DNA of 64,000 bases from an uncultured Candidatus Saccharimonadales bacterium (GCA_964467655.1 CAYXSN010000008.1:78-64077), one strand, 5' to 3'. Shown: positions 6,553-59,318, counted from the first letter of the stretch. Notes: generated by a model not told the origin, from the letters alone. Program-made: numbers and translations.

Positions 6553-6558
6553 TTCACC

Positions 6559-6960
6559 CTAGGCTATTCGTTTTTCTGACCGAATTGTCAAAGTGTTACC
6601 AGACTTAAAAGTAAAGATGACTACGACGTCGCCTTTTGATCGGCGTAAAAATGCACGTTCATCGCTGTCAGGAATGCTGCTCATACCTGTGACTCGGTAA
6701 GTGCCGTCAGTATTGAGAATCCATATCGAGTGAGCATTAGTAGTCGATATTACAATGGCGCCAGGAGACAAGCTCACCTTAAGACGCCTCCGGTAGAGTG
6801 AACTAACATTAAACCCGTTCCCGTGAGAAAAGTTGACATTAAGTCTCAGTTGAGATCTTTCCCGCCGCGTTAAATCTGCCAATAAATTGAAAAGAGCTTC
6901 CTCGACCCCCATGGCTTCATGGTCTCGACCGTCAAGACATAAGCCTTCATAGCGGCCCAT
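6559..6960 (-). CDS. hypothetical small protein, paralogue of the 6163..6552 ORF
   Basis: tandem paralogue; same orientation; lower GC than flanks. Confidence 0.45.
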   Translation of the reverse strand: MGRYEGLCLDGRDHEAMGVEEALFNLLADLTRRERSQLRLNVNFSHGNGFNVSSLYRRRLKVSLSPGAIVISTTNAHSIWILNTDGTYRVTGMSSIPDSDERAFLRRSKGDVVVIFTFKSGNTLTIRSEKRIA

Positions 6961-36325: not shown

Positions 36326-36402
36326 TGGTGCCCCCGGCAGGATTCGAACCTGCGACCATTGGCTTAGAAGTCCACTGCTCTATCCAGCTGAGCTACAGGG
36401 GC
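36326..36402 (-). tRNA. tRNA-Arg (anticodon TCT inferred from loop CTTCTAA); anticodon stem has two mismatches
   Basis: minus-strand GCCCCTGTAGCTCAGCTGGATAGAGCAGTGGACTTCTAAGCCAATGGTCGCAGGTTCGAATCCTGCCGGGGGCACCA with encoded CCA; the weak anticodon stem keeps the identity tentative. Confidence 0.65.
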
Positions 36403-36417
36403 GGGCAAATGATACCT

Positions 36418-36492
36418 TGGTGCGGGTAGCGGGAATCGAACCCACATCCTCTGCTTGGAAGGCAGATACACTAGCCGTTGTGCGATACCCGC
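36418..36492 (-). tRNA. tRNA-Gly (TCC)
   Basis: GCGGGTATCGCACAACGGCTAGTGTATCTGCCTTCCAAGCAGAGGATGTGGGTTCGATTCCCGCTACCCGCACCA; anticodon loop CTTCCAA. Confidence 0.85.
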
Positions 36493-36557
36493 AAGAATCA
36501 ATATTTGCAAACGTTATTATATCAGATGATGGTGCATGTTGCGTATAAATGAGGTGT

Positions 36558-36583
36558 CCCCCGGTGACCGAAGTCACCGGGGG
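36558..36583 (-). terminator. hairpin CCCCCGGTGAC-cgaa-GTCACCGGGGG downstream of the high-GC gene
   Basis: perfect 11-bp GC-rich stem 17 nt after the stop of 36600..36938. Confidence 0.5.
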
Positions 36584-36599
36584 ACGGGGTTGCGAGGGG

Positions 36600-36938
36600 T
36601 CAGGCGTTGGTGGCCGGCCGCCTGCGCCTCTTCGGAGCCAGCTCGGCGAGACGCCGCTCCAGCTCCGCCTTCTCCTCCTTGGTGAGGCGGGCCTTCAGGC
36701 GCGTCCGCTCTCGCGTGGCGCCAAGGCCGAAACCGAGGCGCTCGTCGAGCAGGTCCAGCTGATCGAGGGCCGTGCGCCCGTCGCGCTCCTCCTGCTTCGA
36801 GGCCACCGCCTCGCGGCGGTCCGCCGCCGTGCGGTGGTGGCTGCGGGCGCCCTTGTGGGCGTCGCAGTTGACCGTAAGGCCGCCGTGTCGACGGCAGGTC
36901 TGCGGCGTGCCGGACTCGGTCTGGGGCTTCTTGGCCAT
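36600..36938 (-). CDS. hypothetical 112-aa protein with extreme GC3 (about 95%) codon usage typical of Actinobacteria; C-x-x-H ... C-x-x-H motif
   Basis: ATG preceded by GGGAGG RBS; nearly every codon ends in G/C (GCC AAG AAG CCC CAG ACC GAG TCC...); embedded in about 400 bp of 70% GC between the tRNA-Gly gene and the HAD hydrolase gene. Confidence 0.55.
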   Translation of the reverse strand: MAKKPQTESGTPQTCRRHGGLTVNCDAHKGARSHHRTAADRREAVASKQEERDGRTALDQLDLLDERLGFGLGATRERTRLKARLTKEEKAELERRLAELAPKRRRRPATNA

Positions 36939-37024
36939 TGCTGGCCTCCCTTCACGTGCCCTGATTAGGGCATCTGGGTTTGGACAGGATCGTCAGGCCG
37001 TTGTGCGCCTGAACGCAGTAAATA

Positions 37025-37675
37025 CTAACACAATTTCTTAATTTTGTCAATATTATCAGCTATCTCATCCGCCACAGCCCGCACCGCCGGCCTGTCGGCA
37101 TGTGCCACGTATGCCACAAAGGTATCGGCTAGACCCGCCCGCCGTACCTCATAATCAGTCATGCCATCGCCCACCATCACCACGCCGCCATCCAGGCTCA
37201 GTGACCGCACCGCCAGCACTTTGCCGTCATCCTGCGCCAACGGCCGTCCCGTCTCATAACCTCGGGCTACACCGTCGGTATCCCATATCAATCTGTTAGC
37301 CAGCACATGATCAGCGCGCAAACCGAGCCGCTCTACCACCGGCACGATCCAATCATCGAAACCGCCGCTCACCACCCACACGGCATTAGATCGCTTGGCC
37401 AGCCAGTCTGCCTCGCGCACAAACGAATTATCTACCGCCTCGTGCAGCGAATCTATCAACGCCTCCACCTGATTTCGTCGCGGCGACACCAAGGCCATGC
37501 GTTGTCGTAAACTATCAGCAAAACCAATCCTGCCCTCCATGCCGGCTGCAGTAATGTTGGCAATCTGAGCCGCTTTGGCCTCTCCATCAGGGTCTCCGGC
37601 CAGTACCATTCGTGCCAGTTCGTCAAGGCTCTCCACCCGCACAATTGTACTGTCGAAATCGAGTATAAAATTCAT
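37025..37675 (-). CDS. HAD-IB family hydrolase (phosphoserine phosphatase SerB-like)
   Basis: motif I FILDFDSTI, VVSGG, motif III MVGDGMTD; start moved to MNFILDFD because the longer ORF N-terminus is just the tRNA-Pro gene read in frame. Confidence 0.7.
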   Translation of the reverse strand: MNFILDFDSTIVRVESLDELARMVLAGDPDGEAKAAQIANITAAGMEGRIGFADSLRQRMALVSPRRNQVEALIDSLHEAVDNSFVREADWLAKRSNAVWVVSGGFDDWIVPVVERLGLRADHVLANRLIWDTDGVARGYETGRPLAQDDGKVLAVRSLSLDGGVVMVGDGMTDYEVRRAGLADTFVAYVAHADRPAVRAVADEIADNIDKIKKLC

Positions 37676-37685
37676 AAATAATGAC

Positions 37686-37762
37686 TGGTCGGGGTGAAAG
37701 GACTCGAACCTTCGACCTCCTGCTCCCAAAGCAGGCGCGCTAGCCAACTGCGCCACACCCCG
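37686..37762 (-). tRNA. tRNA-Pro (TGG)
   Basis: CGGGGTGTGGCGCAGTTGGCTAGCGCGCCTGCTTTGGGAGCAGGAGGTCGAAGGTTCGAGTCCTTTCACCCCGACCA. Confidence 0.85.
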
Positions 37763-37860
37763 ATGTACGATCCGTATCATTATACGGCCATACTCCGATA
37801 AGGTCTAGATTTATGAACCAAAATAGGGTAGAGTACGATAGTATTTTTTCATACCCATGT

Positions 37861-37938
<78 letters not shown>

Positions 37939-41455: not shown

Positions 41456-41818
41456 ATGGTCTCTTTTTGCTATATACTAAAAAACATGAGTAAACGTAAT
41501 TGGCTTTCCTCCATAAGGCTTGGGTATTGGCCAGTGGCGGTTTGTGCCATTGTGCTTATAGCTGAAATAGCTATCGAGCTATATCCCGAGGCAGTTCAGA
41601 ATTGGTACTACTACAACACATCCGTGAGTGGGCTAGACGAAATATTTGTGGTACTCAACCTGATGGTTAAATTAGCTGTGGTCCAAGTCCTAATGGTACT
41701 CTTGGCCTGGCTTGGACCCGGTGTTAAAAACCGAAAGCTATCAATTGCGCTGTGCAGCTCCATGATTGTTACTGAAATCATTTTCGCGACCGTAGTTTAT
41801 CATTTCCGCGGATACTAG
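41456..41818 (+). CDS. cassette 3: AT-rich small membrane protein (about 120 aa, 3-4 TM)
   Basis: RBS AAAGAGG; about 40% GC, unlike neighbours; N-terminus MVSFCYIL is echoed by a frameshifted remnant after R4. Confidence 0.4.
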   Translation: MVSFCYILKNMSKRNWLSSIRLGYWPVAVCAIVLIAEIAIELYPEAVQNWYYYNTSVSGLDEIFVVLNLMVKLAVVQVLMVLLAWLGPGVKNRKLSIALCSSMIVTEIIFATVVYHFRGY

Positions 41819-41840
41819 CATTGCCGTAAGCGCAACTGTA

Positions 41841-41880
41841 GTTTTTTATGCCCTCAACGATCCGACCCCAGGAATTATGC
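41841..41880 (+). repeat. R4: GTTTTTTATGCCCTCAACGATCCGACCCCAGGAATTATGC (att-like repeat, 5' part degraded)
   Basis: ends in ACCCCAGGAATTAT like the tRNA-His end; followed by hairpin AGACCCGAAAGGGTCT plus TTTTT (41883-41905). Confidence 0.6.
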
Positions 41881-41882
41881 CC

Positions 41883-41905
41883 GAAAGACCCGAAAGGGTC
41901 TTTTT
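41883..41905 (+). terminator. hairpin AGACCC-gaaa-GGGTCT plus TTTTT
   Basis: direct reading; lies just after R4. Confidence 0.45.
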
Positions 41906-42068
41906 GCTATGCTCAAGTTGTACTGACAGTCTTTCTAAGTTATTTCATCTTGAACGAGAAGGGGCATGTAATAAGGAAGATAGGCGCTGCCGTGATGGTA
42001 GTTTTGGCCGCCATCTTAATCAAAAGTTAGTTTACTCCCTACCAACCAAAACAACGTATAATCCTGGC

Positions 42069-42551
42069 ATGATCAGCCTAGCCAACTATTTCCACTACCC
42101 AAATATTCAGCTTGTTCGTATCAAAGCTGCCGACATTTCAGAGACCGTGGCCCTCATCAATAAAGCCTACGCCTATCAGGACGTGTACAAGCAGGCGCCA
42201 CGCACCAACCCTGAGCATTTGAGCAAAAACGCTACCGATAACGAGTTTTACATCGCAAAGCAGGGCGACGAGATTGTTGGCTGCCTGTATACCAAAAGAG
42301 GAGTTCACTCGGTGCATTTCGGGCTGCTAACCGTCGCCGATGAGTTTAGAGGTAAGGGGCTCGGGCCTGCTTTGATTGAAGCTGTCGAAGCCTTTGCTCA
42401 ACATACTGGCGCCAGAAACGTCGAGCTTGATTATATGTCGGCAGCGCCCTGGCTCAAGCCATACTACGAAAAGTACGGCTACGTTGAAACTGGTGAAATT
42501 ACCAATTGGGGAACGATTGATTTAATTCGCATGTCAAAGCCGCTGCTCTAA
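42069..42551 (+). CDS. cassette 4: GNAT-family N-acetyltransferase
   Basis: ...VGCLYTKRG...RGKGLGPALIEAVEAFA acetyl-CoA binding motif; start moved to MISLANYF. Confidence 0.7.
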   Translation: MISLANYFHYPNIQLVRIKAADISETVALINKAYAYQDVYKQAPRTNPEHLSKNATDNEFYIAKQGDEIVGCLYTKRGVHSVHFGLLTVADEFRGKGLGPALIEAVEAFAQHTGARNVELDYMSAAPWLKPYYEKYGYVETGEITNWGTIDLIRMSKPLL

Positions 42552-46125: not shown

Positions 46126-47097
46126 ATGAAAATGGATCAAGCTGGCCAGTTTGCGCCGACCCCTGAAAGTATCCAGGCTATCCTAACTGAATACAACTTG
46201 ACCCTCGGTCAATTTGAGCCAGCCATGAGCGGCATCGAAAATACGACCCTCTTGGTGGTCGCGCTGGCGCAGCAGTTTGTCCTCAGGGTGTACCGCCATC
46301 GTCGCAAGTCTGATGCCATGATTCGCCGTGAACTAGCCTTCATCAAATATCTGGCGGCAGCAGGTCTTCCGACAGTGCCCGCCATCGTCAATCGCGCCGG
46401 CCAAAGCTACACGAGATACGGCAAGTGGCGCGCCATCCTCATGCCGTTCCGGCCAGGCTATCACCCCTCGCACTACACAGCGGCACTTGTCAGTCAAATG
46501 GCTCAGACTCAAGCCACCATGCACCAGCTGGCGGCTCGCTTTGGCCGGCCGCCCCTCTGGGAGCTGCCGTTATTCAAATTGAAAGAAACCTACTTTCATC
46601 AACACATTGATCGGCGGCAAGACCTCAAGCCGGCTGTGAAAGATTTTTTGGACCGGGTGAAAAGCTTCAATTATCGACTCGATCATGGTTTACCCAAGGG
46701 GTATTGTCACCTCGACTTTAGCGCCGGTAACGTGCTAGTCGGTGGTAGCGGCGAGCTCGCTGCCATTCTGGATTTTGATGATTTGGCCCATGCACCATAT
46801 GTAGTCTGTCTGGGCTACACCTTATGGAGCCTATACCAGCAGGAAGACCCGCGCCTGTTTGCCCAATACCTGGAAGCGTATCAGGCAGTCAGGCCATTGA
46901 GTCAGGTCGAGCTGGCCAGCTTGCCGGCCGTCATGCTGTTTCGACATTATACGGTAGGTGCCATGAAGATTCTTGAGGGGACTATGGATGACCAGAAGAT
47001 TGGGCACTACGTCAGACTTGAGTCGCAGCTGGCTCGAGAATGCTACACTGAAAGCCTAACCTGTGAGAGGACGAACTATGGCTCAATCCACGACTGA
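46126..47097 (+). CDS. phosphotransferase enzyme family protein (APH / homoserine-kinase-II-like)
   Basis: GYCHLDFSAGNVLVGGSGELAAILDFDD (H-x-D-x4-N ... D-F-D). Confidence 0.75.
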   Translation: MKMDQAGQFAPTPESIQAILTEYNLTLGQFEPAMSGIENTTLLVVALAQQFVLRVYRHRRKSDAMIRRELAFIKYLAAAGLPTVPAIVNRAGQSYTRYGKWRAILMPFRPGYHPSHYTAALVSQMAQTQATMHQLAARFGRPPLWELPLFKLKETYFHQHIDRRQDLKPAVKDFLDRVKSFNYRLDHGLPKGYCHLDFSAGNVLVGGSGELAAILDFDDLAHAPYVVCLGYTLWSLYQQEDPRLFAQYLEAYQAVRPLSQVELASLPAVMLFRHYTVGAMKILEGTMDDQKIGHYVRLESQLARECYTESLTCERTNYGSIHD

Positions 47098-47557
47098 CAC
47101 TGTTTTCGACAAAATTGTCCGCGGCGATATACCGTCGTTTAAGGTTTGGGAATCAGCTACGCACCTTGCCTTTTTAACGCCATTTCCGAATACGCCAGGT
47201 TTTACCGTGGTGATTCCCAAAACTAACCAGGGCGACGACGTTTTTGAACTCGATGACATAGCCTATCAAGGCCTAATGTTGGCCGCCAAAACGGTTGCAG
47301 CCAAGCTCAAAAAAGCCTTGGGCGTAGCAAGAGTCGGGCTTGTATACGAGGGCACGGGCATACCATATGTTCATGCCAAGCTCATCCCGATGCATGGCGA
47401 CCTGGCAACCCAAACCGGTGTCTGGAGTAAGCACCAGGAATTTTATCCTGAATACGCGGGATACCTCACAACGGTCGAGGGGCCGAGGATGAGTGACGAC
47501 GAACTCAGGGCACTGCAAGAGCGAATATGCGGTGTGGTACCGTCTTCTGTGGACTAA
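47078..47557 (+). CDS. HIT-like nucleotide hydrolase/transferase family protein
   Basis: FDKIVRGDIPSFKVWESATHLAFLTPFP and YVHAKLIPMHG; overlaps the APH gene end. Confidence 0.55.
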   Translation: MAQSTTDTVFDKIVRGDIPSFKVWESATHLAFLTPFPNTPGFTVVIPKTNQGDDVFELDDIAYQGLMLAAKTVAAKLKKALGVARVGLVYEGTGIPYVHAKLIPMHGDLATQTGVWSKHQEFYPEYAGYLTTVEGPRMSDDELRALQERICGVVPSSVD

Positions 47558-47712
47558 GTTTCAAACCTTGCAGCAAAACTAGGCATAGACATCGTCACTT
47601 GGGTGACGGCTATTGACAAAGCCATACTTATTATAGTATGGTATTATTCGTCACAATCAAGTGGCCTGCGGCCATGCGCTGACATGGAGAGTCTCGGAAA
47701 GGTAGATGAATC

Positions 47713-48150
47713 ATGGCAGGTCTCGTATTCCTGGGCGGCACAGCGGCCAACAACCCCTGGCGCGACGGACTGATCAAGCGACTGGCTGCGCGCGGAGTAC
47801 CCCTTGAGTGTCTGTTCAACCCGGTGGTGCCCGACTGGAATGAGGCAGCGCGGATCGCTGAGGAGAACGCCAAGAAGGCTGCAACCGTGATGTTCTTCTG
47901 CATCGCCGACCCGCGGCAGGAGGGCAACCCCCTCTCGGCCTACTCCATGCTCGAGGTCACCATGGCGTTGTACGACCGTCCTGGGGTGACCGCAGTGGTG
48001 TTCGACACCACTGGCATGGTCGGGCATCCGCTCAAGGCTATGAACCAGGCCTTGAGGGCGCTCAAGGGCCGGTTCCCTGACGCCAACATCTTCAGCAGCA
48101 TGCAGGAAGCCGAAAACTGGCTGGTGGAGAAGCTGGCGAGCAGCGTCTGA
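47713..48150 (+). CDS. nucleoside 2-deoxyribosyltransferase-like (PF05014-like Rossmann) protein, very high GC3
   Basis: VFLGG...CLFNPVV...VVFDTTGMVGHPLKAMN pattern resembles NDT/PF05014; GC3 about 85%; candidate TTGACA -35 at 47615. Confidence 0.45.
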   Translation: MAGLVFLGGTAANNPWRDGLIKRLAARGVPLECLFNPVVPDWNEAARIAEENAKKAATVMFFCIADPRQEGNPLSAYSMLEVTMALYDRPGVTAVVFDTTGMVGHPLKAMNQALRALKGRFPDANIFSSMQEAENWLVEKLASSV

Positions 48151-48172
48151 GCAGCGTCTGAGCAGCGGCTCA
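48140..48172 (+). repeat. 11-bp tandem repeat (GCAGCGTCTGA) x2.8 spanning the stop codon of 47713..48150
   Basis: GCAGCGTCTGA GCAGCGTCTGA GCAGCGGCTCA. Confidence 0.6.
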
Positions 48173-48200
48173 AGGCGCTGACTTCAGACAACCTCATCTC

Positions 48201-48233
48201 AAGGGCCCGCGACAGCATTTTGTCGCGGGCCCT
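48201..48233. terminator. bidirectional hairpin GGGCCCGCGACA-gcatttt-TGTCGCGGGCCC between convergent genes
   Basis: perfect 12-bp GC-rich stem. Confidence 0.55.
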
Positions 48234-48243
48234 TCACTATTTA

Positions 48244-48930
48244 TTACCCCATCCACGGGGAGTCAAGCGCCTGTGGCACCCGCTGCTTAAACCGGAACAG
48301 TTGGGCTGGGCGATGCCTCCCGCCGCGCACCAGATCGCCTGTCGGTTCGACAAAACCCAGTGACAAATACTTTTTGCGGAAATTACGCTTGTCCACGGCC
48401 GCCCCAAACGCCACTTCATATACCGTCTGCAGATCACTAAACACAAATACTTCAGGGAGCAATGAATAGGCCGCGTTCGTGTAGGTCAGCTTCGACCGCA
48501 GCCGCTCAACCGCCACAGCAATAATCTCAGTGTGGTCAAACCCCAATGCCGGTAGTTCACTCACTGGTACAAACTCCACCTCAGCGGCTGGCTGCAGCTG
48601 GCTGGGAGCCGCCAGCGCTAGGTACGCAACACTAGTTACTCGACCGCGCGGATCGCGGTCAAGTGCGTCAAAGGTAGCCAGTTGCTCCAGAAACATACCA
48701 GATATTCCGGCTTTAGCTGACAGTAAACGTTCGGCACTCCGGCGAAACGTCTCACCGTCCCAGACAAAGCCTCCAGGTAAAACGAGGCTGCCAGTGAAAG
48801 GTTCGGCAGTACGCGGGATCAGCATAACTCGCAATTGACTATCAATAATCGTCAGTAACACCACGTCAGTAGTAAGCCTGATGGTAGCTAACCCGGGGCG
48901 TTCTGTAGAGGGCGTAATTGGTGGTTGCAT
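48244..48930 (-). CDS. nrtR: NrtR-like regulator (degenerate Nudix domain + C-terminal winged helix)
   Basis: Nudix-like PGGFVWDGETFRRSAERLLSAKAGI and C-terminal ...EVAFGAAVDKRNFRKKYLSLGFVEPTGDLVRGGRHRPAQLFRF typical of NrtR; start moved to MQPPITP (the longer ORF would cover the operator region). Confidence 0.55.
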   Translation of the reverse strand: MQPPITPSTERPGLATIRLTTDVVLLTIIDSQLRVMLIPRTAEPFTGSLVLPGGFVWDGETFRRSAERLLSAKAGISGMFLEQLATFDALDRDPRGRVTSVAYLALAAPSQLQPAAEVEFVPVSELPALGFDHTEIIAVAVERLRSKLTYTNAAYSLLPEVFVFSDLQTVYEVAFGAAVDKRNFRKKYLSLGFVEPTGDLVRGGRHRPAQLFRFKQRVPQALDSPWMG

Positions 48931-48950
48931 ACAAGAAATTATATCAAAAA

Positions 48951-48965
48951 GTGTAAAAAATACAC
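48951..48965. promoter_or_regulatory. palindrome GTGTA-AAAAA-TACAC overlapping the nrtR promoter (TATAAT at 48936-48941 on the minus strand)
   Basis: direct reading. Confidence 0.4.
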
Positions 48966-48973
48966 AATACCCC

Positions 48974-49035
48974 TTGACAAAGTGTAATGCAAACACTAAG
49001 TTGAGAGTATGGTTTGTGTGTGAATAACACAAACC
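48974..49035 (+). promoter_or_regulatory. pncA-like promoter TTGACA-N17-TAAGTT with palindrome GTGTAATGCAAACAC in the spacer, plus strong palindrome GGTTTGTGT-gtgaata-ACACAAACC (49011-49035)
   Basis: direct reading; both palindromes share the GTGT...ACAC core; RBS AAAGGAG precedes ATG 49072. Confidence 0.45.
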
Positions 49036-49071
49036 TGATCCTGAACAACCCACATCTCAAAGGAGCTAACC

Positions 49072-49926
49072 ATGACCACACGTGTGCATCTGGTGATCGT
49101 CGATCCCCAGGTTGACTTCATGGATACGCCCGGATCGGCATTGCCAGTTCCGGGTGCCACAGCCGACATGCAGCGGTTGGCCGCAATGGTACGCCGGCTC
49201 GGCGGCAGACTTGACGACATTCATGTCACCCTCGATAGCCACCATCTGGTGGACGTCGGGCACCCTGCCCTGTGGCGCAACGGCACTGACGGTACGCCGC
49301 CACCGCCGTTCACAGTCATCAGGGCGGATGACCTGCGCCATCGGCTGTGGGTGCCTCGCTTCGAGACCGCCAAGCCTCCGGCGCTCGATGGTCAAACAGT
49401 TGGCCAGTATCTGCTGAGCTACGCTGATACCCTCGAAGCCCAAGGTCGCCATCTCCTGATGGTCTGGCCGACGCACTGCCTCATTGGGAGTCCCGGTCAC
49501 AGCGTCCAGCTCGACTTGGCTCAGGCACTCAACGACTGGGCCGACGCACAATTCGCCAACATCGACTGGGTCGTCAAGGGTACCAATCCATGGACAGAGC
49601 ACTACGGTGCCGTGCATGCGGAAGTGCCCATGCCCACAGACCCGTCAACCGCTCTCAACACCCGCTTCCTCGAAGTGTTGGAGGCAGCCGATCTGGTGGT
49701 ATTCGCCGGTGAGGCACTGTCTCACTGCGTGCGTGAAACCGTCAGGCAAGTGGCCGATAATCTCGGCGACAAGGCTGTACAAAAGCTGCACCTAGTGACC
49801 GACTGCACTTCAAGCATTCCTGCCACCCCCGGCGGGCCCGACTTCCCGGCCATGACCCAAGATTGGCTGGACGACATGACAGCTCGGGGCTTGCAGTTGA
49901 CCACTTCCGAGGCATTTCTGGCCTAA
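49072..49926 (+). CDS. pncA: nicotinamidase/pyrazinamidase-like cysteine hydrolase (isochorismatase family, PncA-like with insertion)
   Basis: LVIVDPQVDF, WPTHCLIGSPGH, FAGEALSHCVRET (catalytic Cys) closely parallel PncA. Confidence 0.65.
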   Translation: MTTRVHLVIVDPQVDFMDTPGSALPVPGATADMQRLAAMVRRLGGRLDDIHVTLDSHHLVDVGHPALWRNGTDGTPPPPFTVIRADDLRHRLWVPRFETAKPPALDGQTVGQYLLSYADTLEAQGRHLLMVWPTHCLIGSPGHSVQLDLAQALNDWADAQFANIDWVVKGTNPWTEHYGAVHAEVPMPTDPSTALNTRFLEVLEAADLVVFAGEALSHCVRETVRQVADNLGDKAVQKLHLVTDCTSSIPATPGGPDFPAMTQDWLDDMTARGLQLTTSEAFLA

Positions 49927-49955
49927 ACCTACCCGATCGAAAGGACGTGCTCATC

Positions 49956-50738
49956 ATGCCAAAGCTCACCCCTGACCCCGGCGACGCCGGTCTGCAGGCC
50001 CACACGATTCCCGGTTCCACCTTTGGTTTCACTGCTGCCCGCATCGGCGACCTTGGCGCCACCGAGTACACGCTGGCCACCATCGTGGTGGATGTCACAG
50101 GCTCGACCGAGGGCTTCACCGACGACTTGCGGCGTATGCTGGAGGCCACAATCGAGGCGTGCCAGCGCTCGCCCCGACGGGAGCACTTGCTGGTGCGAGT
50201 GGTGTTGTTTTCAACTCGCTTTCAGGGTCACATTCAGGAGCTACACGGTTTCAAGCCGTTGGCCGACATCGACCCTGCTGGTTACCCGCGGTTGGTGGCC
50301 GGCGGCGCCACCCCGCTATGGGACGCCACCTATGATGCTGTTGGTGCGGTAGCTGAGTACGGCCGCCAACTGACGGAAGCCGACTATGGCACCAATGCCA
50401 TAGTCTTCGTCATCACCGACGGCCAGGAAGGTGACGGCTGGGGGAAGCCGGTGTCAGTCATGCGACCGGCGAATATTGCCCAGCAGTTGCGCGATATCGT
50501 CGCCAAGGAGTGGCTCGAGTCGGTAGTAACAGTGCTCATTGGCATCAATGCTACTGACTGCCGAAACGCGTTGGAGCGCTTCCAGCAGGACGCCGGCTTC
50601 ACCCAGTACACCGATGTGGCCGATGCTACTTCGGCCAACCTGGCCAAGCTGGCGGCCTTCGTCAGCCAGTCGATCGTCAGCCAGAGTCAGGCTCTCGGTA
50701 CCGGCGGGCCGTCGCAGGCCATCTCGGCTACCATCTGA
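49956..50738 (+). CDS. von Willebrand factor A (vWA, TerY-like) domain protein
   Basis: MIDAS-like VVDVTGSTEG, GGATPLWDA, FVITDGQEGDG; RBS AAAGGA before ATG 49956. Confidence 0.7.
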   Translation: MPKLTPDPGDAGLQAHTIPGSTFGFTAARIGDLGATEYTLATIVVDVTGSTEGFTDDLRRMLEATIEACQRSPRREHLLVRVVLFSTRFQGHIQELHGFKPLADIDPAGYPRLVAGGATPLWDATYDAVGAVAEYGRQLTEADYGTNAIVFVITDGQEGDGWGKPVSVMRPANIAQQLRDIVAKEWLESVVTVLIGINATDCRNALERFQQDAGFTQYTDVADATSANLAKLAAFVSQSIVSQSQALGTGGPSQAISATI

Positions 50739-50819
50739 ACCGCGACGCTAGGCGTCCAACCAATGGGGTGGTGAGGCAAGCATACTTGTCTCACCACCCC
50801 CTTCTCATTTGGAGGTATC

Positions 50820-51671
50820 ATGACCACCACGTTCCAGACAGACTCACACTTCGTCCTCGGTTCACTTCATAGCTCCAGCGGCCAACCTTGCCAGGACTAT
50901 GCCACCAGTGGTCAGTTGGAATCAGCGGCCTACGCTATTGTGGCTGATGGTTGCTCCAGCGGCGGCCAGACAGATGTCGGCGCCCGTATCACGGCACTAG
51001 CCATGGCTGAGGCTCTGAGGATACAGAGTAAGCTCCATCATCAGATAGGAGAAGCTCAGATCCAAACTCTCACAGCTCAGCAATTAGCCATCATGGTAGC
51101 CACAGGCCATTTGCTCAATCTCACACCCGCCGATTTACTGGCTACCTGTCTTGTTGCCTACCAAAGTCATCAAGGCGGCTGGGCCTATCTGCGTGGTGAC
51201 GGTCTCGTGATCTGGCACACTGCTGCCGGAGAGCAGCTGGCAGTGCGTGTCGAATGGAGTCCGGACAACCCGGACCGGGCCGCACCGTTCTACCCAGCTT
51301 ATGCCATTGGCGATATCGCCGGCTTTGTCGAGCACTATGGTGGGCCCGAAGTACTGGCATATCGCGTCGAACACTGGCGTTTGGCCCCGGGCAAACCACT
51401 GTGCCTGTCATCGCAGCTTCAAACTGTGAGTGAAGGCCTTGCTGGCACATTCGTGACCTTGCCTGCCGACACTCAAACAGTAGCCGTCGTCAGTGACGGT
51501 TCCTGTCAGATAGAGGGTCTGGATTGGCAGGAAGCAGCTAGGCAGCTGACCAGTTTCAAAACAACTGCCGGCGCCTTTGCCATCCGGCGCCTCATGAGGT
51601 TCGTCAAAGCCAATCAGGCAATCGGTCGTCGGCCACTCGATGATCTGGCGCTGGCTGTCATTCGACGCTAA
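50820..51671 (+). CDS. PP2C-family Ser/Thr protein phosphatase
   Basis: HSSSGQPCQDYA ... AYAIVADGCSSGGQTDVGARI (PP2C motifs 1-2), downstream Asp-containing motifs. Confidence 0.7.
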   Translation: MTTTFQTDSHFVLGSLHSSSGQPCQDYATSGQLESAAYAIVADGCSSGGQTDVGARITALAMAEALRIQSKLHHQIGEAQIQTLTAQQLAIMVATGHLLNLTPADLLATCLVAYQSHQGGWAYLRGDGLVIWHTAAGEQLAVRVEWSPDNPDRAAPFYPAYAIGDIAGFVEHYGGPEVLAYRVEHWRLAPGKPLCLSSQLQTVSEGLAGTFVTLPADTQTVAVVSDGSCQIEGLDWQEAARQLTSFKTTAGAFAIRRLMRFVKANQAIGRRPLDDLALAVIRR

Positions 51672-51718
51672 GGCTGTCGTCTGCGGGGCAAAAAAGAGTG
51701 TCCAATGGAGGAATCAAA

Positions 51719-53452
51719 ATGAAACTCAACCATCTAACCGGCTTCCATCTCGATGGTCATGGTCCTGTCAAACTGAGTACCAAGCATCATCTGGCCACCG
51801 GCGGCGAAGCCTCAGTCTACCGGCTCGATACGCTGGCCATCAAACTCTACACCGATACTGGGCGCCTCAGCCAGCCCGGCATGATCGGCAGGATCCAATC
51901 GCTCACAGAACTGCGCCATCCGGGAGTAACGGCACCGCGCGGCCTCGTGACTACAACGACGGGCAGACCGGTTGGCTACTGGATGGATTTTGTCGACCAA
52001 GCTGAAGCGTTGCCCTCAGTGTGCACCAACGACTTCCGTCGTCGAACCAGTTTTGATGACAACCAAGCGTCCAAACTGGTTGGCGCCATGTTCGGCGTCA
52101 TGAGCTACGCTCATGGAGCTGGGGCCATTATGGTTGACCCCAACGAGCTCAACTGGGCGATCACCAGCCAGAACCGTTCGTATCGGCCCCGGGCACTCGA
52201 TGTTGATGCCTGGGTGCTGGGAAATTACACTCCGAGCAGCGTAGCCGTTATGCCATCCATCCGTGATTGGCATTCAGCTGGCATCGGCCAGGCAGCCGAT
52301 CGTTTCGGCCTGGCAGTTGTGACGTTCCAGGTATTTACCGGCATTCACCCCTACAAGGGTACGCTCGATGGCTATCGTCGAGGCGATCTAGTACGGCGCA
52401 TGCAAGATAACGCCTCAGTGTTCACGCCAGGCGTGCGCCTAAACCAGGCAGTACGTGATCCAGGCCGCATTCCCCGTCGACTCCTCGACTGGTATAAGGG
52501 TGTTTTTGATCATGGCGATCGCAGCGATCCACCATCAAAGTGGACAGCCTCAGCCGTGCCAAGCCAGAATATAGTGACGAAGCGCATCGCGGCAACGGCT
52601 GGAGGCAAGTTAACCTACACCCGAGTCTATGAGTCAATCGGTGACCCTGTTGTTCAGGTGTATGGCTGCGGCGTCGTCAAGCTGGCATCAGGTAAGCTGG
52701 TTGATCTGGCAACCGAGCGAGTGCTCTACACCACGACTGCAGCACGAGTACAAGTAACAACAGTTGAATCAGGCTGGCTCATAGCCGAGCTGGAACCAGA
52801 GCCACAGTTCAACTTTGTCTCCAAGGTACCTCAACCGGTACAGCCTCTGAGCCTGGGTATCGACATCTCAGAGCTCGTCTCCTATCAGAACCGGCAGTTT
52901 GTGGTTACGCCTCAGGGTTTGACCGAACTGCTCGTCAAACATTTCGCTCGGCCGGTTCTGACTACGGGTCGTATCTGGCAAGCCACCAGCACAGCTACCC
53001 GTTGGTACGACGGTGTTGGTATCCTCGATGCTATGGGCGCGACGTTTGTAATCGCACCGTTCGGAGAAGGATCCTGCGCCATCATCCGCGTGCCCGAACT
53101 AGATGGTCAACGAGTAATAGCGGCCATCTCTGGGCCACGCTGCGTGGTGCTGTCTGCGATGCAGACCAACGGTTCGTACCACCACGTGGAGTTGGTATTC
53201 GACCGCTCCTATACCAGCTACCAGATCAACCAGACTGAGGTTGACACCCCTCAGCTGAACCGCGCCATTTTGCCGAAAGGAGTCATGGTCGCCATCATCG
53301 AAGATGGTGAGATTGTCATCACAGTTCCTACTACCGGCGACCGCCGCCTGGTACATGACAGCCAAGCTCTAACAAGCTTGGCTCTGGCTTCATGGGGTAA
53401 TCGGGCGGTAGCCATCCGCGATGGCGCACTGTGGCAGCTCCAGCTGGCCTAG
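51719..53452 (+). CDS. Ser/Thr protein-kinase-like protein with about 300-aa C-terminal extension
   Basis: glycine loop ATGGEASVYRL, VAIK-like LAIKLY, catalytic loop HGAGAIMVDPNELN, DFG-like LDVDAW; RBS GGAGG before ATG 51719. Confidence 0.65.
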   Translation: MKLNHLTGFHLDGHGPVKLSTKHHLATGGEASVYRLDTLAIKLYTDTGRLSQPGMIGRIQSLTELRHPGVTAPRGLVTTTTGRPVGYWMDFVDQAEALPSVCTNDFRRRTSFDDNQASKLVGAMFGVMSYAHGAGAIMVDPNELNWAITSQNRSYRPRALDVDAWVLGNYTPSSVAVMPSIRDWHSAGIGQAADRFGLAVVTFQVFTGIHPYKGTLDGYRRGDLVRRMQDNASVFTPGVRLNQAVRDPGRIPRRLLDWYKGVFDHGDRSDPPSKWTASAVPSQNIVTKRIAATAGGKLTYTRVYESIGDPVVQVYGCGVVKLASGKLVDLATERVLYTTTAARVQVTTVESGWLIAELEPEPQFNFVSKVPQPVQPLSLGIDISELVSYQNRQFVVTPQGLTELLVKHFARPVLTTGRIWQATSTATRWYDGVGILDAMGATFVIAPFGEGSCAIIRVPELDGQRVIAAISGPRCVVLSAMQTNGSYHHVELVFDRSYTSYQINQTEVDTPQLNRAILPKGVMVAIIEDGEIVITVPTTGDRRLVHDSQALTSLALASWGNRAVAIRDGALWQLQLA

Positions 53453-54649: not shown

Positions 54650-55204
54650 CTAGTAGTCGATCGTTTTGCGGGCCAAAATGCCGGCGTCATACGGGTGTTT
54701 AACTTTTCGCATCTCGGTCACCAGATCGGCCCGTTCAATCAGCGGCGTTAGATCAAGGCCTTTGTGGCCGGTCAAAACTAGATCGATCTCGGGCGGTCGG
54801 GAATCGGCTAGTTCAACTACTGCCGCCAACGGCAACAGCCCGCCAGTGACGCAGCCGATGATCTCGTCTAGCACAACCACATCATAGGCTCCCGAAGCGA
54901 GCTTTCTGGCTGCCAGCTCCAGGGCGGCCCGGGCTGCTTCCACGTGCTCGGTTTCCGGTAGCTTATCGCCGAGTATCTTGTAGAAGCCTTTGCCCGCCTG
55001 TATAAATTCGACATTTGGCAGGTGCTCGAAGCCGCCTTTTTCACCGGTAAACCATGTTTTTACAAACTGAATAACGAGCACCCGTTTGCCATAGCCGGCT
55101 GCCCGTAGCGCCAAGCCCATGGCGGCCGTTGTTTTACCCTTACCATCGCCGGTGTATAGGATGAGCAATCCGCGATCTGATTCGTGCAGCTCTGGTTCAG
55201 CCAT
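54650..55204 (-). CDS. cobO: cob(I)yrinic acid a,c-diamide / corrinoid adenosyltransferase (CobO/BtuR/CobA type)
   Basis: P-loop LILYTGDGKGKTTAAMG, VLDEI, 184 aa. Confidence 0.8.
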   Translation of the reverse strand: MAEPELHESDRGLLILYTGDGKGKTTAAMGLALRAAGYGKRVLVIQFVKTWFTGEKGGFEHLPNVEFIQAGKGFYKILGDKLPETEHVEAARAALELAARKLASGAYDVVVLDEIIGCVTGGLLPLAAVVELADSRPPEIDLVLTGHKGLDLTPLIERADLVTEMRKVKHPYDAGILARKTIDY

Positions 55205-55874: not shown

Positions 55875-58586
55875 CTAGCACTTACTAAAACCGCAGATCT
55901 CGCATTTTTGGCAGCCTTCAATGAATCGCAAAGAGGCGTTACCGCAATCTGGGCACATGTCAGCCAGGTGCGCCGATTCGCTCCGGTCGTGAACAGCTCC
56001 AGGTGCGGGGCTGCCGGCGGTGCCGTTGAGAACGCCCGCCGCCGCTTCAGCTGCTGCCGCCCCGCTGCCGCCGCCCATCAGTGCTCCCGCCGCAGCCATG
56101 CTGGCGAGCTGAGCCGCCTGAGGACCAGATACGGGTTCATTGCTATTCTTGGCTGTTTCGTGCTCGCGCAACACCTTGGCGACGGCGTCGGCCAGACTGC
56201 GCACCCGGGCTTGACCAAATCCCGCCGAGCTTGATCCACCAATGCCGCTGAGCTGATCGATCACATTTTGGGCGATCCGGTCCGAGGCAAATGTGCTCGG
56301 AATGCGGAATGATAGGGAGATAAGTCGTCCCATAGCTTCGGCATCCGCCATGATGTCCGATCCGGCCCGACCCAATCCGATAAATACCTCGAAGATATTG
56401 CCGCTGTCATCTTCGTTAATCGTGATGTACGCGTTACCGATTGGAGTAGCCACTTTGTATGTTTTGCCATTGAGAGTCTCGGGCCGTTGCTTCATAGCTA
56501 CTGGTACACCCATGAGGGCTTTATCACCAGCTTTGACGACTTTACCTGCCAGCTGGTCGTAGTACGAACCCTCTTTCTTGGTCTCCAAGATCTGCTTGTC
56601 CCGTGAGCCATCACGGTAGATGGTGATACCTTTGCAACCAGATTCAAAGACCTGCCAATAGGCGTCGCGCACGTCCTGGACGGTGGCGTCATTGTTGAAG
56701 TTGATCGTTTTGGAAATAGCGTTATCAACATACTTTTGGAAAGCAGCTTGCATGTTGATGTGTTGGCTCGGGGTGATGTCGCCGGCCACCACAAAGGTGC
56801 GGCGCAGGTCTTCGGGCAGATCGGTCATGCTCTGGATAGAGCCTTTATTCTGCTGCACCCGCTCCAGCAACTCTTCACTATAGAGGCCGCGTTTCTTGAG
56901 CTCGGCTTCGAAGTAGCGGCTCGATTGGAACATCCGTTTGCCCTCGATGGTGTTCTTGGCATAGGTGAGGGCAAAGAGCGGCTCGCAACCACTGGAACAG
57001 TCGGCCAGCATGGCGGTGGTGCCAGTGGGCGCAATGGTGGTCCGGGCGCCGTTGCGCGGGCGGATCTCGCCGGGCTTGTCGTAAATGCTACCTTTAAAGG
57101 CCGGGAAGACGCCGCGTACCCGGGCCATGTCAACCGATGCGTTATCTGATTCCTGCTGGATGAACTTCATGACGCGTTCGGCGGCGTCGGTGCCTTCCTT
57201 GGTGTTGTAACCAATGCCGAGATCAAGCAATGCATCAGCAAAACCCATGATACCCAATCCAATGCGGCGGATAGCACGCGTGGTCACCCGGACCTGCTCG
57301 ATCGGGTATTCGTTCATATCGAGAACGTCATCGAGGAATCGGGTGCCAATATGCACCATAGTCTTGAGTCGCGACCAATCAAAATCGGTCTTTTCGGCAT
57401 TGACGAATTTGCTCAAGTTAATCTGGCCCAAGGTACAGGCGTCGTAGGGCAGGAGTGGTTGCTCACCGCATGGGTTGGTGGCCTCAATCATGCCCAATTG
57501 AGGCGTCGGGTTGGCCCGGGAGTTATTAATCCGGTCAACCATGATCATACCCGGGTCACCGTAGCGCCAGGCTAATCGGGTGATAATGTCGTACAGTTTC
57601 TTGGCATTGAGTCGGCCAGCCACAGCTCCAGTGCGCGGATTGATGAGCTCATATCCTTTGTTGGGATCAGATTCATCACACCATTCATGTAATTTTTTGA
57701 CGGCAGCGTCCAGGCGCACAATCTTAAGATCAGGATCACGCAACTTGAGGGCTTCCTGGGCCTCGTTGATGACAGCCTCAAAATCAAATCCAGCCTCATA
57801 ATCTGCGGGCAGCGAGGCCGCATCGCGTTTAACCGCCTCAAAGAAGTCTTCGTCGACTGTCACCGAGATATTGAAGTTAGTGAGGCTAAATTCATCTACT
57901 TTGTAGACAGCAAACATCAAAATATCTGGATGGGTATAGTGCAAAATGCCCATGTTGGCGCCGCGTCGTACCCCGCCCTGCCTGATGCTTGAGGTGATAT
58001 CGTTGTACGTCTGCATGAAAGCCACAGGGCCAGTAGTTTTGCCGCCGGATGAGGCAATGATGTCATCTTTGGGTCGTAGGCGGCTAAACGAAAAGCCAGT
58101 ACCACCGCCACTCTTGTGAATGCGCGCCATATCCATGGCCGATCCCAAGATGCCGTCGAGGTCATCGGGCACCGGCAGGACAAAACACGCCGAGAGTTGT
58201 TGATTAGGCTTGCCCGCGTTCAGCATCGTCGGCGTATTGGCCACAAATTCTTGCCGAGCCATGGTCATATAGAATTCGCGGGCCATTTCCAGATGGGTTT
58301 CGCGTGGGTTCTCACTGTACAAACGCTCAGCCGTCGCAATGTTATAGCTGATACGCCATAGCATTTGCTTGGGTGATTCGATAGGATTACCAGCCTTATC
58401 GCGGAAGGCGTAGCGGGTTTTACCAATGTACCAGGCATTTTCTGAATAACGAGGTTCAGGCAGGTCATCGGGTGCAGCCGGAATCTGCTTACCGATGACG
58501 TACAATTCTTCAAGCCGCTCCCGGTCCTCGGGCGTTTCCGCCACAATATTGTTGGCCAAAATGGCCTCTGGTGTACTAGTAGCCAC
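55875..58586 (-). CDS. nrdJ: adenosylcobalamin-dependent ribonucleoside-diphosphate reductase, class II
   Basis: 903 aa; NAGKPNQQLSACFVLPV, SGGGTGFSFSRLRP, C-terminal CPDCGN...CQKCEICGF zinc ribbon. Confidence 0.9.
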   Translation of the reverse strand: MATSTPEAILANNIVAETPEDRERLEELYVIGKQIPAAPDDLPEPRYSENAWYIGKTRYAFRDKAGNPIESPKQMLWRISYNIATAERLYSENPRETHLEMAREFYMTMARQEFVANTPTMLNAGKPNQQLSACFVLPVPDDLDGILGSAMDMARIHKSGGGTGFSFSRLRPKDDIIASSGGKTTGPVAFMQTYNDITSSIRQGGVRRGANMGILHYTHPDILMFAVYKVDEFSLTNFNISVTVDEDFFEAVKRDAASLPADYEAGFDFEAVINEAQEALKLRDPDLKIVRLDAAVKKLHEWCDESDPNKGYELINPRTGAVAGRLNAKKLYDIITRLAWRYGDPGMIMVDRINNSRANPTPQLGMIEATNPCGEQPLLPYDACTLGQINLSKFVNAEKTDFDWSRLKTMVHIGTRFLDDVLDMNEYPIEQVRVTTRAIRRIGLGIMGFADALLDLGIGYNTKEGTDAAERVMKFIQQESDNASVDMARVRGVFPAFKGSIYDKPGEIRPRNGARTTIAPTGTTAMLADCSSGCEPLFALTYAKNTIEGKRMFQSSRYFEAELKKRGLYSEELLERVQQNKGSIQSMTDLPEDLRRTFVVAGDITPSQHINMQAAFQKYVDNAISKTINFNNDATVQDVRDAYWQVFESGCKGITIYRDGSRDKQILETKKEGSYYDQLAGKVVKAGDKALMGVPVAMKQRPETLNGKTYKVATPIGNAYITINEDDSGNIFEVFIGLGRAGSDIMADAEAMGRLISLSFRIPSTFASDRIAQNVIDQLSGIGGSSSAGFGQARVRSLADAVAKVLREHETAKNSNEPVSGPQAAQLASMAAAGALMGGGSGAAAAEAAAGVLNGTAGSPAPGAVHDRSESAHLADMCPDCGNASLRFIEGCQKCEICGFSKC

Positions 58587-58673: not shown

Positions 58674-58705
58674 GGCTTAGGCGTTCCCCTCTCGACGCCT
58701 AAGCC
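58674..58705. promoter_or_regulatory. inverted repeat GGCTTAGGCGT-N10-ACGCCTAAGCC at the nrdR/nrdJ junction (attenuator or terminator candidate)
   Basis: 11-bp perfect arms overlapping the nrdR stop. Confidence 0.35.
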
Positions 58706-59162
58706 GGCTTGCCGGGCTGATCAAGCAATTCGCCAACCTCTTCGGCAAATGCTTCTACCTGGGTGTAGCCCCGGCAGACGCTGGCAAAGCGAATATAGGC
58801 AATGTGGTCGACACTTTTGAGCTGCTCCATCACGAGCGCTCCTATCAACTCAGCCGGTACTTCCCGTCGCTTGCCACTACGTAGCTCAGCCTCTACGGCC
58901 TCGATCATCGTAAGCACCTGCACTTCGCTTACGGGCCGCTTGGTGACAGCTAGCTGAACGCCGCGTTTAAGTTTCTCCGGATCAAAACTCTCGCGCCGGC
59001 CATCATGCTTGATCACCATGAGATCGGGTAATTCCACACGCTCATAGGTCGTGAAGCGCTGACGGCAGCCCAAACATTCTCGCCGCCGGCGAGTGCTCGT
59101 GATATCGCTTTCGCGCTTGTCGAGCACCTTCGTGTCGCTGTGATCGCAAAAAGGACAAATCA
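58699..59162 (-). CDS. nrdR: transcriptional repressor NrdR (zinc ribbon + ATP cone)
   Basis: (M)ICPFCDHSDTKVLDKRE...RRRRECLGCRQRFTTYE; TTG start with GGGAGA RBS. Confidence 0.85.
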
Positions 59163-59211
59163 AGCCTTGGTGTAGTCTCCCGTGGGTTGTTGATGGTTGC
59201 GATAGCACAAC

Positions 59212-59260
59212 CACTTGTGCTACATTAGCATTATGAACGCTACATATTGTAGTCGTCAAT
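59212..59260. promoter_or_regulatory. two palindromes (AGCACAA-ccac-TTGTGCT at 59212-59229 and CTACATATTGTAG at 59248-59260), candidate tandem NrdR boxes in the nrdR / trxA divergent region
   Basis: centres about 34 bp apart; flanks match the CACAA...TTGTG arms of NrdR boxes. Confidence 0.4.
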
Positions 59261-59318
59261 ACTAAATACGGCGTGCTATGATGGTTCATGCCGCGTCAAA
59301 AAAAAGAGGGGACCACAC

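Follow-up and report, generated by a model that had tools for sequence, protein, structure and literature searches.

A likely NrtR-type switch over a nicotinamidase-like, vWA, PP2C and kinase operon in an uncultured Candidatus Saccharimonadales bacterium

Repressors of the NrtR family (Rodionov et al. 2008; crystal structure 3GZ5) join a Nudix-like effector domain to a C-terminal winged helix, stand divergent from or co-directional with NAD-salvage genes, and have as operators 21-bp palindromes with a GT-N7-AC core that lie over promoters; nrtR<>pncA-pncB divergons are a known arrangement (PMC2330246). The arabinose sensor AraR of Bacteroides thetaiotaomicron (5BS6) controls arabinose genes, and in its crystal structure with DNA the residues K179, R180, N181, K184, K204, and R205 specify the GTGT motif (PMC4666351). 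In the same paper, R41, K76, and R98 of Shewanella NrtR (SoNrtR) are described as contacting the phosphates and ribose of ADP-ribose. TerY-P triads, consisting of a vWA protein, a PP2C phosphatase, and a kinase, were proposed to be a phosphorylation switch (Anantharaman, Iyer & Aravind 2012), and TerY-P-like modules were shown to work against phage on their own (Gao et al. 2020); PMC11090510 relays both. The described TerY-P kinases end in a zinc ribbon (CoCoNuT-type) or an OB fold (defence type) (PMC11090510). Nudix-helix-turn-helix regulators and vWA proteins also recur in predicted ADP-ribose-centred conflict systems (PMC9503650). Here we analysed a locus on a 64,000-nucleotide stretch of DNA from an uncultured Candidatus Saccharimonadales bacterium (GCA_964467655.1, CAYXSN010000008.1:78-64077; the whole stretch is called the window), in which an nrtR gene is divergent from a gene for a PncA-like protein that leads an operon with vWA, PP2C, and kinase genes.

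Taken together, the data make it likely that this locus is an NrtR-type repressor/operator switch governing the four-gene operon. A 141-bp intergenic region separates nrtR from the PncA-like gene, and the regulator, its sites, and the operon are arranged as follows.

48244-48930, minus strand: nrtR, 228 aa, degenerate Nudix domain and C-terminal winged helix
48938-48943, minus strand: putative nrtR -10 box TATAAT, read from the sequence
48951-48965: operator 1, GTGTAAAAAATACAC, overlapping the spacer and -35 region of the putative nrtR promoter
48974-49002, plus strand: putative promoter of the rightward operon, TTGACA-17-TAAGTT, read from the sequence
48982-48996: operator 2, (A)GTGTAATGCAAACAC(T), filling the spacer of the operon promoter
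49011-49035: operator 3, GGTTTGTGT-N7-ACACAAACC, with 9-bp arms, in the 5' leader, 3' of the putative -10 box
49072-49926, plus strand: PncA-like cysteine amidohydrolase, 284 aa, first gene of the operon
49956-50738, plus strand: TerY-like vWA protein, 260 aa
50820-51671, plus strand: PP2C-family phosphatase, 283 aa
51719-53452, plus strand: kinase with a propeller-like domain, 577 aa from the ATG at 51719; the open reading frame (ORF) opens at a GTG at 51698

The motif GTGT-N7-ACAC occurs exactly three times in the window (48951-48965, 48982-48996, and 49016-49030; about 0.84 expected), and all three sites lie inside 80 bp of the nrtR/PncA-like intergenic region. An earlier reading made from the sequence alone had described three GTGT/ACAC palindromes in this region; their positions were accurate, and they fit the published NrtR operator. 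The operator centres are spaced by 31 and 34 bp, approximately three helical turns. A search of the window for further NrtR sites with mismatches allowed revealed none above chance and none 5' of the neighbouring gene for a nucleoside deoxyribosyltransferase (NDT)-like protein. Site 2 occupies the 17-nt spacer between TTGACA (48974-48979) and TAAGTT (48997-49002), while site 1 is positioned 7 nt upstream of the minus-strand TATAAT (48943-48938). This TATAAT ends 7 nt before the ATG of nrtR, implying a leaderless mRNA. The layout had been called a textbook one; the placement of sites 1 and 2 is as described, but for the promoters the term is too strong, since the hexamers themselves are weak.

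To place these sites in a wider frame, we used a comparison set of 80 loci with relatives of the PncA-like gene, drawn from 80 species-level genomes. Sites of the TAGTGT-N7-ACACTA type recur 5' of the orthologous PncA-like genes, and the consensus from all 134 exact GTGT-N7-ACAC sites in the related loci is TTAGTGTA-N5-TACACTAA. In 42 of the 80 loci, at least one exact site precedes the PncA-like gene or an nrtR gene in the same orientation; Markov simulation of the same upstream regions gave a mean of 0.4 loci with a site and a maximum of 3. The sites in the related loci are mostly upstream of the PncA-like gene, nadD, pncB, nrtR, pnuC, and canonical pncA. The operators are conserved across phyla.

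The regulator matched the Pfam model NrtR_WHD over residues 155-214 with 74 bits (cutoff 27) and the Pfam model NUDIX over residues 23-131 with 36.9 bits (cutoff 21.1). Its match to the NCBIfam NrtR repressor model NF050029 (E 1.7e-38, 132.5 bits) did not reach the equivalog cutoff of 400, and by these profile scores the protein is classed as a member of the NrtR family, not as an equivalog of the curated NF050029 set. The sequence-only reading had already assigned it to NrtR, and since the winged helix aligns to the NrtR model and the palindromes are conserved in related genomes, that assignment stands. The Nudix box reads G54-x5-E60-x7-R68-L-L-S-A-K-A-G-I, so all three catalytic Glu residues of REUXEE are gone. 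A sequence search against the PDB placed Bacteroides AraR (5bs6) best (E 7e-37, 130.6 bits), with Shewanella NrtR (3gz5) behind it (E 4e-26, 95.5 bits); residues 16-217 align to both SoNrtR and AraR. The shorter, 228-aa start is favoured by the alignment to these solved relatives and by the median length of the orthologues. The recognition helix D180-K-R-N-F-R-K186 is identical to that of AraR, its closest solved relative, and R207 is the equivalent of the AraR wing residue R205, so that the protein shares with AraR the helix, the wing Arg, and the GTGT half-site. Each position of DKRNFRK is kept in 28-31 of 31 orthologues, and R207 in all 31.

Because the best match of the regulator is an arabinose sensor, we compared the ligand contacts. 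In the alignment, SoNrtR R41, K76, and R98, the ADP-ribose contacts named above, correspond to R40, K73, and R95 of the regulator, whereas AraR carries Leu (L67) and Gly (G89) at the K73 and R95 positions. Among the 31 orthologues, K73 is conserved in 28, R92 in 30, H133 in 30, and R95 in 20. Judged from these residues, the ligand would be a phosphorylated ribose, probably ADP-ribose. Taken alone, the regulator and operator pair adds one more, unremarkable member to the NrtR family; CPR (Candidate Phyla Radiation) bacteria lie outside the coverage of PMC2330246.

The first product of the operon was compared with PncA and Pnc1 nicotinamidases of known structure (2WTA, 2H0R, 3PL1, and 1ILW). It shares with them the fold, the Asp-Lys-Cys triad, the Asp/His/His(/His) metal site, and the motifs VDxQxDF, DxH, and WPxHC. 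The triad residues D11, K169, and C219 are invariant in 23 sequences and correspond in the alignment to D8, K122, and C167 of yeast Pnc1. The metal ligands D55, H57, H64, and H135, which in PncA belong to the site that places the pyridine nitrogen, are likewise invariant and match the DxH and WPxHC motifs in Pnc1 and Pyrococcus horikoshii PncA. A family profile searched against the PDB returned nicotinamidases only (E 7e-6 to 2e-4). The AlphaFold2 (AF2) model (pLDDT 89.6) gave the same picture, with the top 11 Foldseek matches all being nicotinamidases (E 2e-11 to 3e-8) at target-normalised TM scores of 0.74-0.82, except for a longer Drosophila entry at 0.49. The earlier designation as a PncA-like nicotinamidase thus holds for fold and active-site residues, but the protein is not an ordinary PncA. 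It is only 17-19% identical to the solved enzymes, has SHCV and not D/E-Y/F-CV before the nucleophile, scores below the Pfam threshold, and contains an inserted subdomain of roughly 60-70 residues at about 58-130 with its own invariant residues D61, W68, W93, P95, and Y117. Unlike PncA and Pnc1, it is almost always linked in an operon to the signalling triad, and it sometimes sits beside a canonical PncA. Model and alignments thus place the PncA-like gene as nicotinamidase-like in predicted fold and catalytic residues, yet in a separate family, and a simple housekeeping nicotinamidase activity is not assured.

The family is large, with about 1,900 close homologues, many of them in Saccharimonadales, Parcubacteria, and other CPR groups, and an exhaustive profile search gave 1,088 cluster representatives at E <= 1e-30. 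Its phyletic spread covers CPR, Alpha-, Beta-, and Gammaproteobacteria, cyanobacteria, and Armatimonadota. Such genes are now labelled 'nicotinamidase', 'cysteine hydrolase', '8-oxo-dGTP diphosphatase', or 'hypothetical protein', which is a lesson for annotation. In fusion proteins of the family, the N-terminal partners had no Pfam match, and a 520-aa protein (P0354) considered as a fusion of NrtR and a PncA-like domain was rejected. In a eukaryote-like homologue of 1,629 aa (P0379), ankyrin repeats and an ion-transport domain are combined with two PncA-like domains in tandem; domain 1 retains Asp/Lys/Cys, and domain 2 is without the Cys. P0379 is possibly a TRP-like channel whose ligand domain derives from a nicotinamidase, and it hints at a ligand-sensor role for the domain. 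A distant PncA-like homologue (28% identity) on a 925-kb replicon of Vibrio vulnificus (L093) adjoins an RNA ligase family gene, a potassium channel, and a large TerD-family protein.

Only 29 bp separate the stop codon of the PncA-like gene (49926) from the start of the vWA gene (49956). Where the downstream flank was long enough to judge (71 loci), the order PncA-like, vWA, PP2C, and kinase, all on the same strand, was unbroken in 66. The vWA protein scored 19.8 bits against Pfam VWA (cutoff 23.8), and its MIDAS residues D46, S50, T119, and D155 are conserved at 95% or more and T48 at 80% or more in 61 sequences. Its C-terminus (50650-50738) is a tail rich in Ser and Gln, FVSQSIVSQSQALGTGGPSQ, with a conservation of at least 80-95% among 61 orthologues; the tail is a candidate phospho-acceptor for the adjacent kinase. 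The PP2C protein matched PF13672 (PP2C_2) with 58.5 bits (cutoff 24), and its metal-binding Asp residues are conserved. The kinase domain comprises residues 1 to about 270 and is of a divergent Ser/Thr type, while the C-terminal 280 residues are all-beta and propeller-like. A kinase profile searched against the PDB found Ser/Thr kinases only (E about 1e-3), and some kinase homologues carry PF00069. The residues K49, D147, and D168-V-D170 are invariant or near-invariant, and N152 is conserved at 90% or more. In the AF2 model (pLDDT 86.5), the best Foldseek matches are the LRRK2 kinase-WD40 region and IRAK4 (E 7e-12 to 1e-6), and we regard both folds, kinase and propeller, as confidently predicted.

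The contiguous genes for a TerY-like vWA protein with conserved MIDAS residues, a PP2C, and a Ser/Thr kinase resemble the TerY-P triad. The cassette differs from the described triads in that its kinase tail is propeller-like and not a zinc ribbon or OB fold, and in that it is led by a nicotinamidase-like enzyme, under NrtR, in NAD-salvage clusters, whereas the described triads occur in Ter or restriction contexts. A PADLOC scan of eight local proteins at E <= 0.01 gave zero matches, and the triad is not classed here among known defence systems; a PHROGs scan gave weak generic matches only. The ARG-centred ADP-ribose systems (Iyer et al. 2022; PMC9503650, section 3.8) likewise have an NrtR-like negative regulator predicted to sense ADP-ribose, with vWA proteins and phosphatases nearby, but they are built on ARG with rhodanese-type phosphatases and chaperones and are without a nicotinamidase-like enzyme, PP2C, or kinase core. 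With respect to NrtR regulons, the vWA/PP2C/kinase triad in the target operon is unlisted among the regulon members of PMC2330246. A full-text literature search revealed no paper that joins a nicotinamidase or isochorismatase with vWA, PP2C, or NrtR, and within the literature searched the NrtR-controlled combination of a nicotinamidase-like enzyme with a TerY-P-like cassette looks like an undescribed variant.

Analysis of the neighbourhoods in the 80 loci connected the cassette to NAD salvage. The Pfam-confirmed neighbours include nicotinate phosphoribosyltransferase (NAPRTase) in 25 loci, a NadD-like adenylyltransferase in 21, ADP-ribosylglycohydrolase in 8 (a further likeness to the ARG-centred systems), canonical PncA in 6, PnuC in 4, and NadR in 3. 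An nrtR gene lies within 6 kb of the cassette in 33 loci, co-directional and upstream in 26 and divergent, as here, in 4. The sequence-only reading had proposed a NAD-salvage switch; in relatives, pncB, nadD, pnuC-nadR, and canonical pncA share the operator, in agreement with that proposal, but the regulated unit is a four-gene operon and not a lone pncA, and the span described in that reading ended with the first of the four genes.

The cassette spans CPR lineages (most of the loci), Bradyrhizobium isolates, other Proteobacteria, a cyanobacterium, and Gracilibacteria, with cross-phylum identities of 50-66%. This patchy distribution at such identity suggests transfer, as far as sequence comparison can indicate. 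Mis-binning of CPR DNA could account for some 'proteobacterial' contigs from metagenome-assembled genomes, but the cassette is also present in isolate genomes. Two metagenomic huge-phage genomes, L090 (LR756511.1, 595 kb) and L091 (LR745208.1, 485 kb), encode PncA-like, vWA, and PP2C proteins that are 43-46% identical, and L091 also has the kinase. In these phage cassettes, ORFs mostly without a Pfam match are interleaved, and Nudix and GmrSD_N proteins follow downstream. Plasmid 2 of Variovorax sp. SRS16 (L092, 631562-648407) carries an island with a NAD and ADP-ribose theme, in the order NrtR-like<>PncA-like, vWA, a hypothetical gene, a PF15891 NDT-like gene, and NAD kinase, with a Nudix hydrolase, RecX, a macro-domain protein, AlkB, and RNase HII nearby; this island has no PP2C and no kinase of the triad.

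On the other side of nrtR, the NDT-like gene and its surroundings are organised as follows.

46126-47097: APH-type kinase gene
47078-47557: HIT-family gene
47613-47642, plus strand: promoter-like site TTGACA-18-TATGGT upstream of the NDT-like gene, from the promoter scan
47621-47642: inverted repeat CCATACT-N6-AGTATGG covering the -10 element of the NDT-like promoter, a possible operator for a different regulator
47713-48150, plus strand: NDT-like gene, 145 aa, PF15891 family, a separate transcription unit
48138-48167: 11-bp tandem repeat GAGCAGCGTCT, 2.7 copies, 100% identical, across the NDT-like stop codon
48201-48234: perfect 14-bp GC-rich hairpin, likely terminator between the convergent NDT-like and nrtR genes

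The NDT-like protein scored 27.0 bits against PF15891 (cutoff 30), and a precomputed PF15891 match is on record for most of its 110 homologues. Across 26 sequences, E81, in a YSxxE motif, and E50 do not vary, and W16 and R17 are also invariant in the family. Going by the family motif, the conserved acidic residue may correspond to the NDT nucleophile. PDB sequence searches with the protein singly and as a profile found no relative, and the full-text literature search found no paper mentioning PF15891. The codon usage of the gene had been described as foreign. Its GC content at third codon positions (GC3) is indeed the highest in the window (0.82, z = +3.0), but its synonymous-codon likelihood (z = +0.65) is not unusual. 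The evidence bearing on horizontal acquisition of the module, which the same reading had proposed, is this GC3 outlier together with the patchy distribution, and we have not retained that claim. The hairpin had been called a bidirectional terminator; it does lie between convergent genes, but its T-rich tail is on the plus strand only. The tandem repeat looks like a recent duplication at the 3' end of the gene. The TTGACA-18-TATGGT site is the only consensus-grade promoter in the region.

As for membership in the module, PF15891 genes recur in three other contexts with a NAD link: convergent on nrtR beside nadD, NAPRTase, and nadE (L085); directly 5' of the PncA-like and vWA genes (L088); and, on Variovorax megaplasmids, two genes 3' of NrtR<>PncA-like-vWA and adjoining NAD kinase. 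Against this, the gene here has no NrtR operator 5' of it and a promoter-like site of its own, and three further PF15891 contexts are without any NAD link. Pairwise homology between the NDT-like proteins of the window and of Variovorax is undetectable; both match PF15891, the window copy below the cutoff. It is plausible that the NDT-like gene is an accessory of the module and not a core part, which modifies its earlier inclusion as a component.

Several features elsewhere in the window are recorded here as side observations. The segment 53548-60618, 3' of the operon, contains, by names taken from the translations, a CobO-like ATP:corrinoid adenosyltransferase (54650-55204), a class II-like ribonucleotide reductase of 903 aa (55875-58586, minus strand), NrdR (58699-59289, minus strand), thioredoxin, and thioredoxin reductase. 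Four tRNA genes (Arg-TCT, Gly-TCC, Pro-TGG, and His-GTG) cluster at 36326-37938, and an Rfam scan of the window found tRNAs only. Two gene pairs, at 6163-6960 and 41456-42551, have a low GC3 relative to the window (z about -1.5 to -2.6) and are stronger low-GC outliers than anything in the NrtR/PncA-like locus.

For the switch over the four-gene operon, we propose the following mechanism. NrtR dimers would bind the operators through the helix DKRNFRK and the wing residue R207, and the bound repressor would block access to the leaderless nrtR promoter, to the spacer of the operon promoter, and to the 5' leader, thereby repressing transcription in both directions. A phosphorylated-ribose ligand arising from NAD+ cleavage, most likely ADP-ribose, would release the repressor. 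Once the operon (49072-53452) is derepressed, its first product would most likely deamidate nicotinamide or a close pyridine carboxamide, and nicotinamide deamidation would feed the Preiss-Handler route, whose genes pncB, nadD, and nadE lie on either side of or next to the cassette in related genomes. The vWA/MIDAS protein, the PP2C, and the Ser/Thr kinase with its beta-propeller may constitute a TerY-P-like phospho-switch, which probably tunes or reports the state of the enzyme, a role for the triad that we infer. The NDT-like gene would be a separately transcribed, recurrent accessory of the module.

Several observations weigh against the switch as we read it. The consensus promoter scan reported no promoter in the intergenic region, because both TAAGTT and the nrtR -35 element match the consensus at three of six positions. 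The closest structural relative of the regulator is a sensor of arabinose and not of ADP-ribose, the N-terminal adenine-contacting aromatics Y10 and F15 of SoNrtR have no evident counterpart, and N43 is replaced by Ala. For the PncA-like protein, the Pfam Isochorismatase match is partial (residues 191-259) and below the cutoff (24.4 against 27 bits), no NCBIfam model matches, and plain nicotinamidase activity would be redundant in the six loci where a canonical PncA of roughly 215 aa lies in the same cluster. An nrtR gene is near in only 33 of the 80 loci, and the cassette is therefore not dependent on it. The 64-kb window itself contains no homologues of pncB, nadD, nadE, canonical pncA, pnuC, nadR, or ARH.

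We weighed this reading against other explanations of the locus. That the palindromes arose by chance in AT-rich intergenic DNA, or serve another factor, appears extremely improbable: shuffling of the window did give at least three matches anywhere in the 64 kb in 4 of 100 trials, but the real sites all fall within 80 bp of one intergenic region, the motif recurs far above the simulated expectation in the related loci, and it is the half-site read by an identical recognition helix in the AraR crystal structure. A second explanation takes the regulator to be an AraR-like sensor of free pentose or a non-nucleotide sugar, with an operon that responds to carbon source and not to NAD turnover. The order of the PDB matches, the shared recognition helix, and the sugar-contacting residues R92 and H133 common to AraR would all agree with it, and we nevertheless consider it highly improbable: K73 and R95 sit at the positions of the ADP-ribose contacts K76 and R98 that PMC4666351 gives for SoNrtR, where AraR has Leu and Gly, and the 80 loci contain zero pentose-utilisation genes and frequent NAD genes.

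The remaining explanations concern what the operon is for. The locus might, in line with the sequence-only reading, be a two-gene NAD-salvage switch of nrtR and pncA that recycles nicotinamide, with the vWA, PP2C, and kinase genes unrelated and the NDT-like gene a horizontally acquired add-on, as the known nrtR<>pncA-pncB divergons (PMC2330246), the nicotinamidase-like enzyme, and the GC3 outlier would suggest; the triad, however, follows the enzyme gene in 66 of 71 loci from several phyla, a tighter linkage than that of nrtR, the gap between the first two operon genes is 29 bp, and canonical PncA co-occurs in six loci, so that we regard this version as distinctly unlikely. A conflict system, anti-phage or serving counter-defence in phages, would have the phospho-switch monitor NAD+ cleavage, with nicotinamide read via the PncA-like domain and ADP-ribose via NrtR, and trigger a protective response and not housekeeping salvage. 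The TerY-P architecture with its reported anti-phage activity (Gao et al. 2020, as relayed in PMC11090510), the cassette genes of the huge phages, the pairing of NrtR<>PncA-like-vWA with NDT-like, NAD kinase, macro, and Nudix genes on Variovorax megaplasmids, the patchy distribution, and the Nudix-helix-turn-helix and vWA components of ADP-ribose conflict systems (PMC9503650) speak for such a role. We judge it unlikely in view of the empty PADLOC scan, a cassette with no nuclease, pore, or other effector, its place in CPR inside a salvage cluster whose operator is common to pncB, nadD, and pnuC, sequences that are well conserved across phyla and not fast-evolving, and a kinase with a beta-propeller in place of the tails of described TerY-P kinases. 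The presence in phages keeps a conflict-related role, which the sequence-only reading had raised as use against phage, open without demonstrating one.

Beyond the NrtR-type switch itself, we tentatively suggest, with more doubt than confidence, that the cassette is a previously undescribed module for the surveillance of NAD+ cleavage, which would read both glycohydrolysis products and give a phosphorylation signal. ADP-ribose would be read via NrtR at the level of transcription, and nicotinamide via the nicotinamidase-derived sensor or enzyme at the protein level. Such a module might govern the NAD economy or infection responses in CPR symbionts and some Proteobacteria, with the huge phages appearing as captors.

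These results extend the NrtR family to a probable CPR bacterium, and the recognition helix identical to that of AraR provides a structural rationale for the GTGT half-site. The more useful result is a distinct nicotinamidase-like family that is almost always operon-linked to a vWA/PP2C/kinase switch. The hosts of the cassette depend on scavenged NAD precursors, and the cassette is found inside their NAD-salvage clusters and in huge phages. If the linkage is functional, it would tie NAD+ turnover to Ser/Thr phosphorylation in bacteria and would offer a cloneable four-gene system for NAD management in reduced-genome symbionts and phages.

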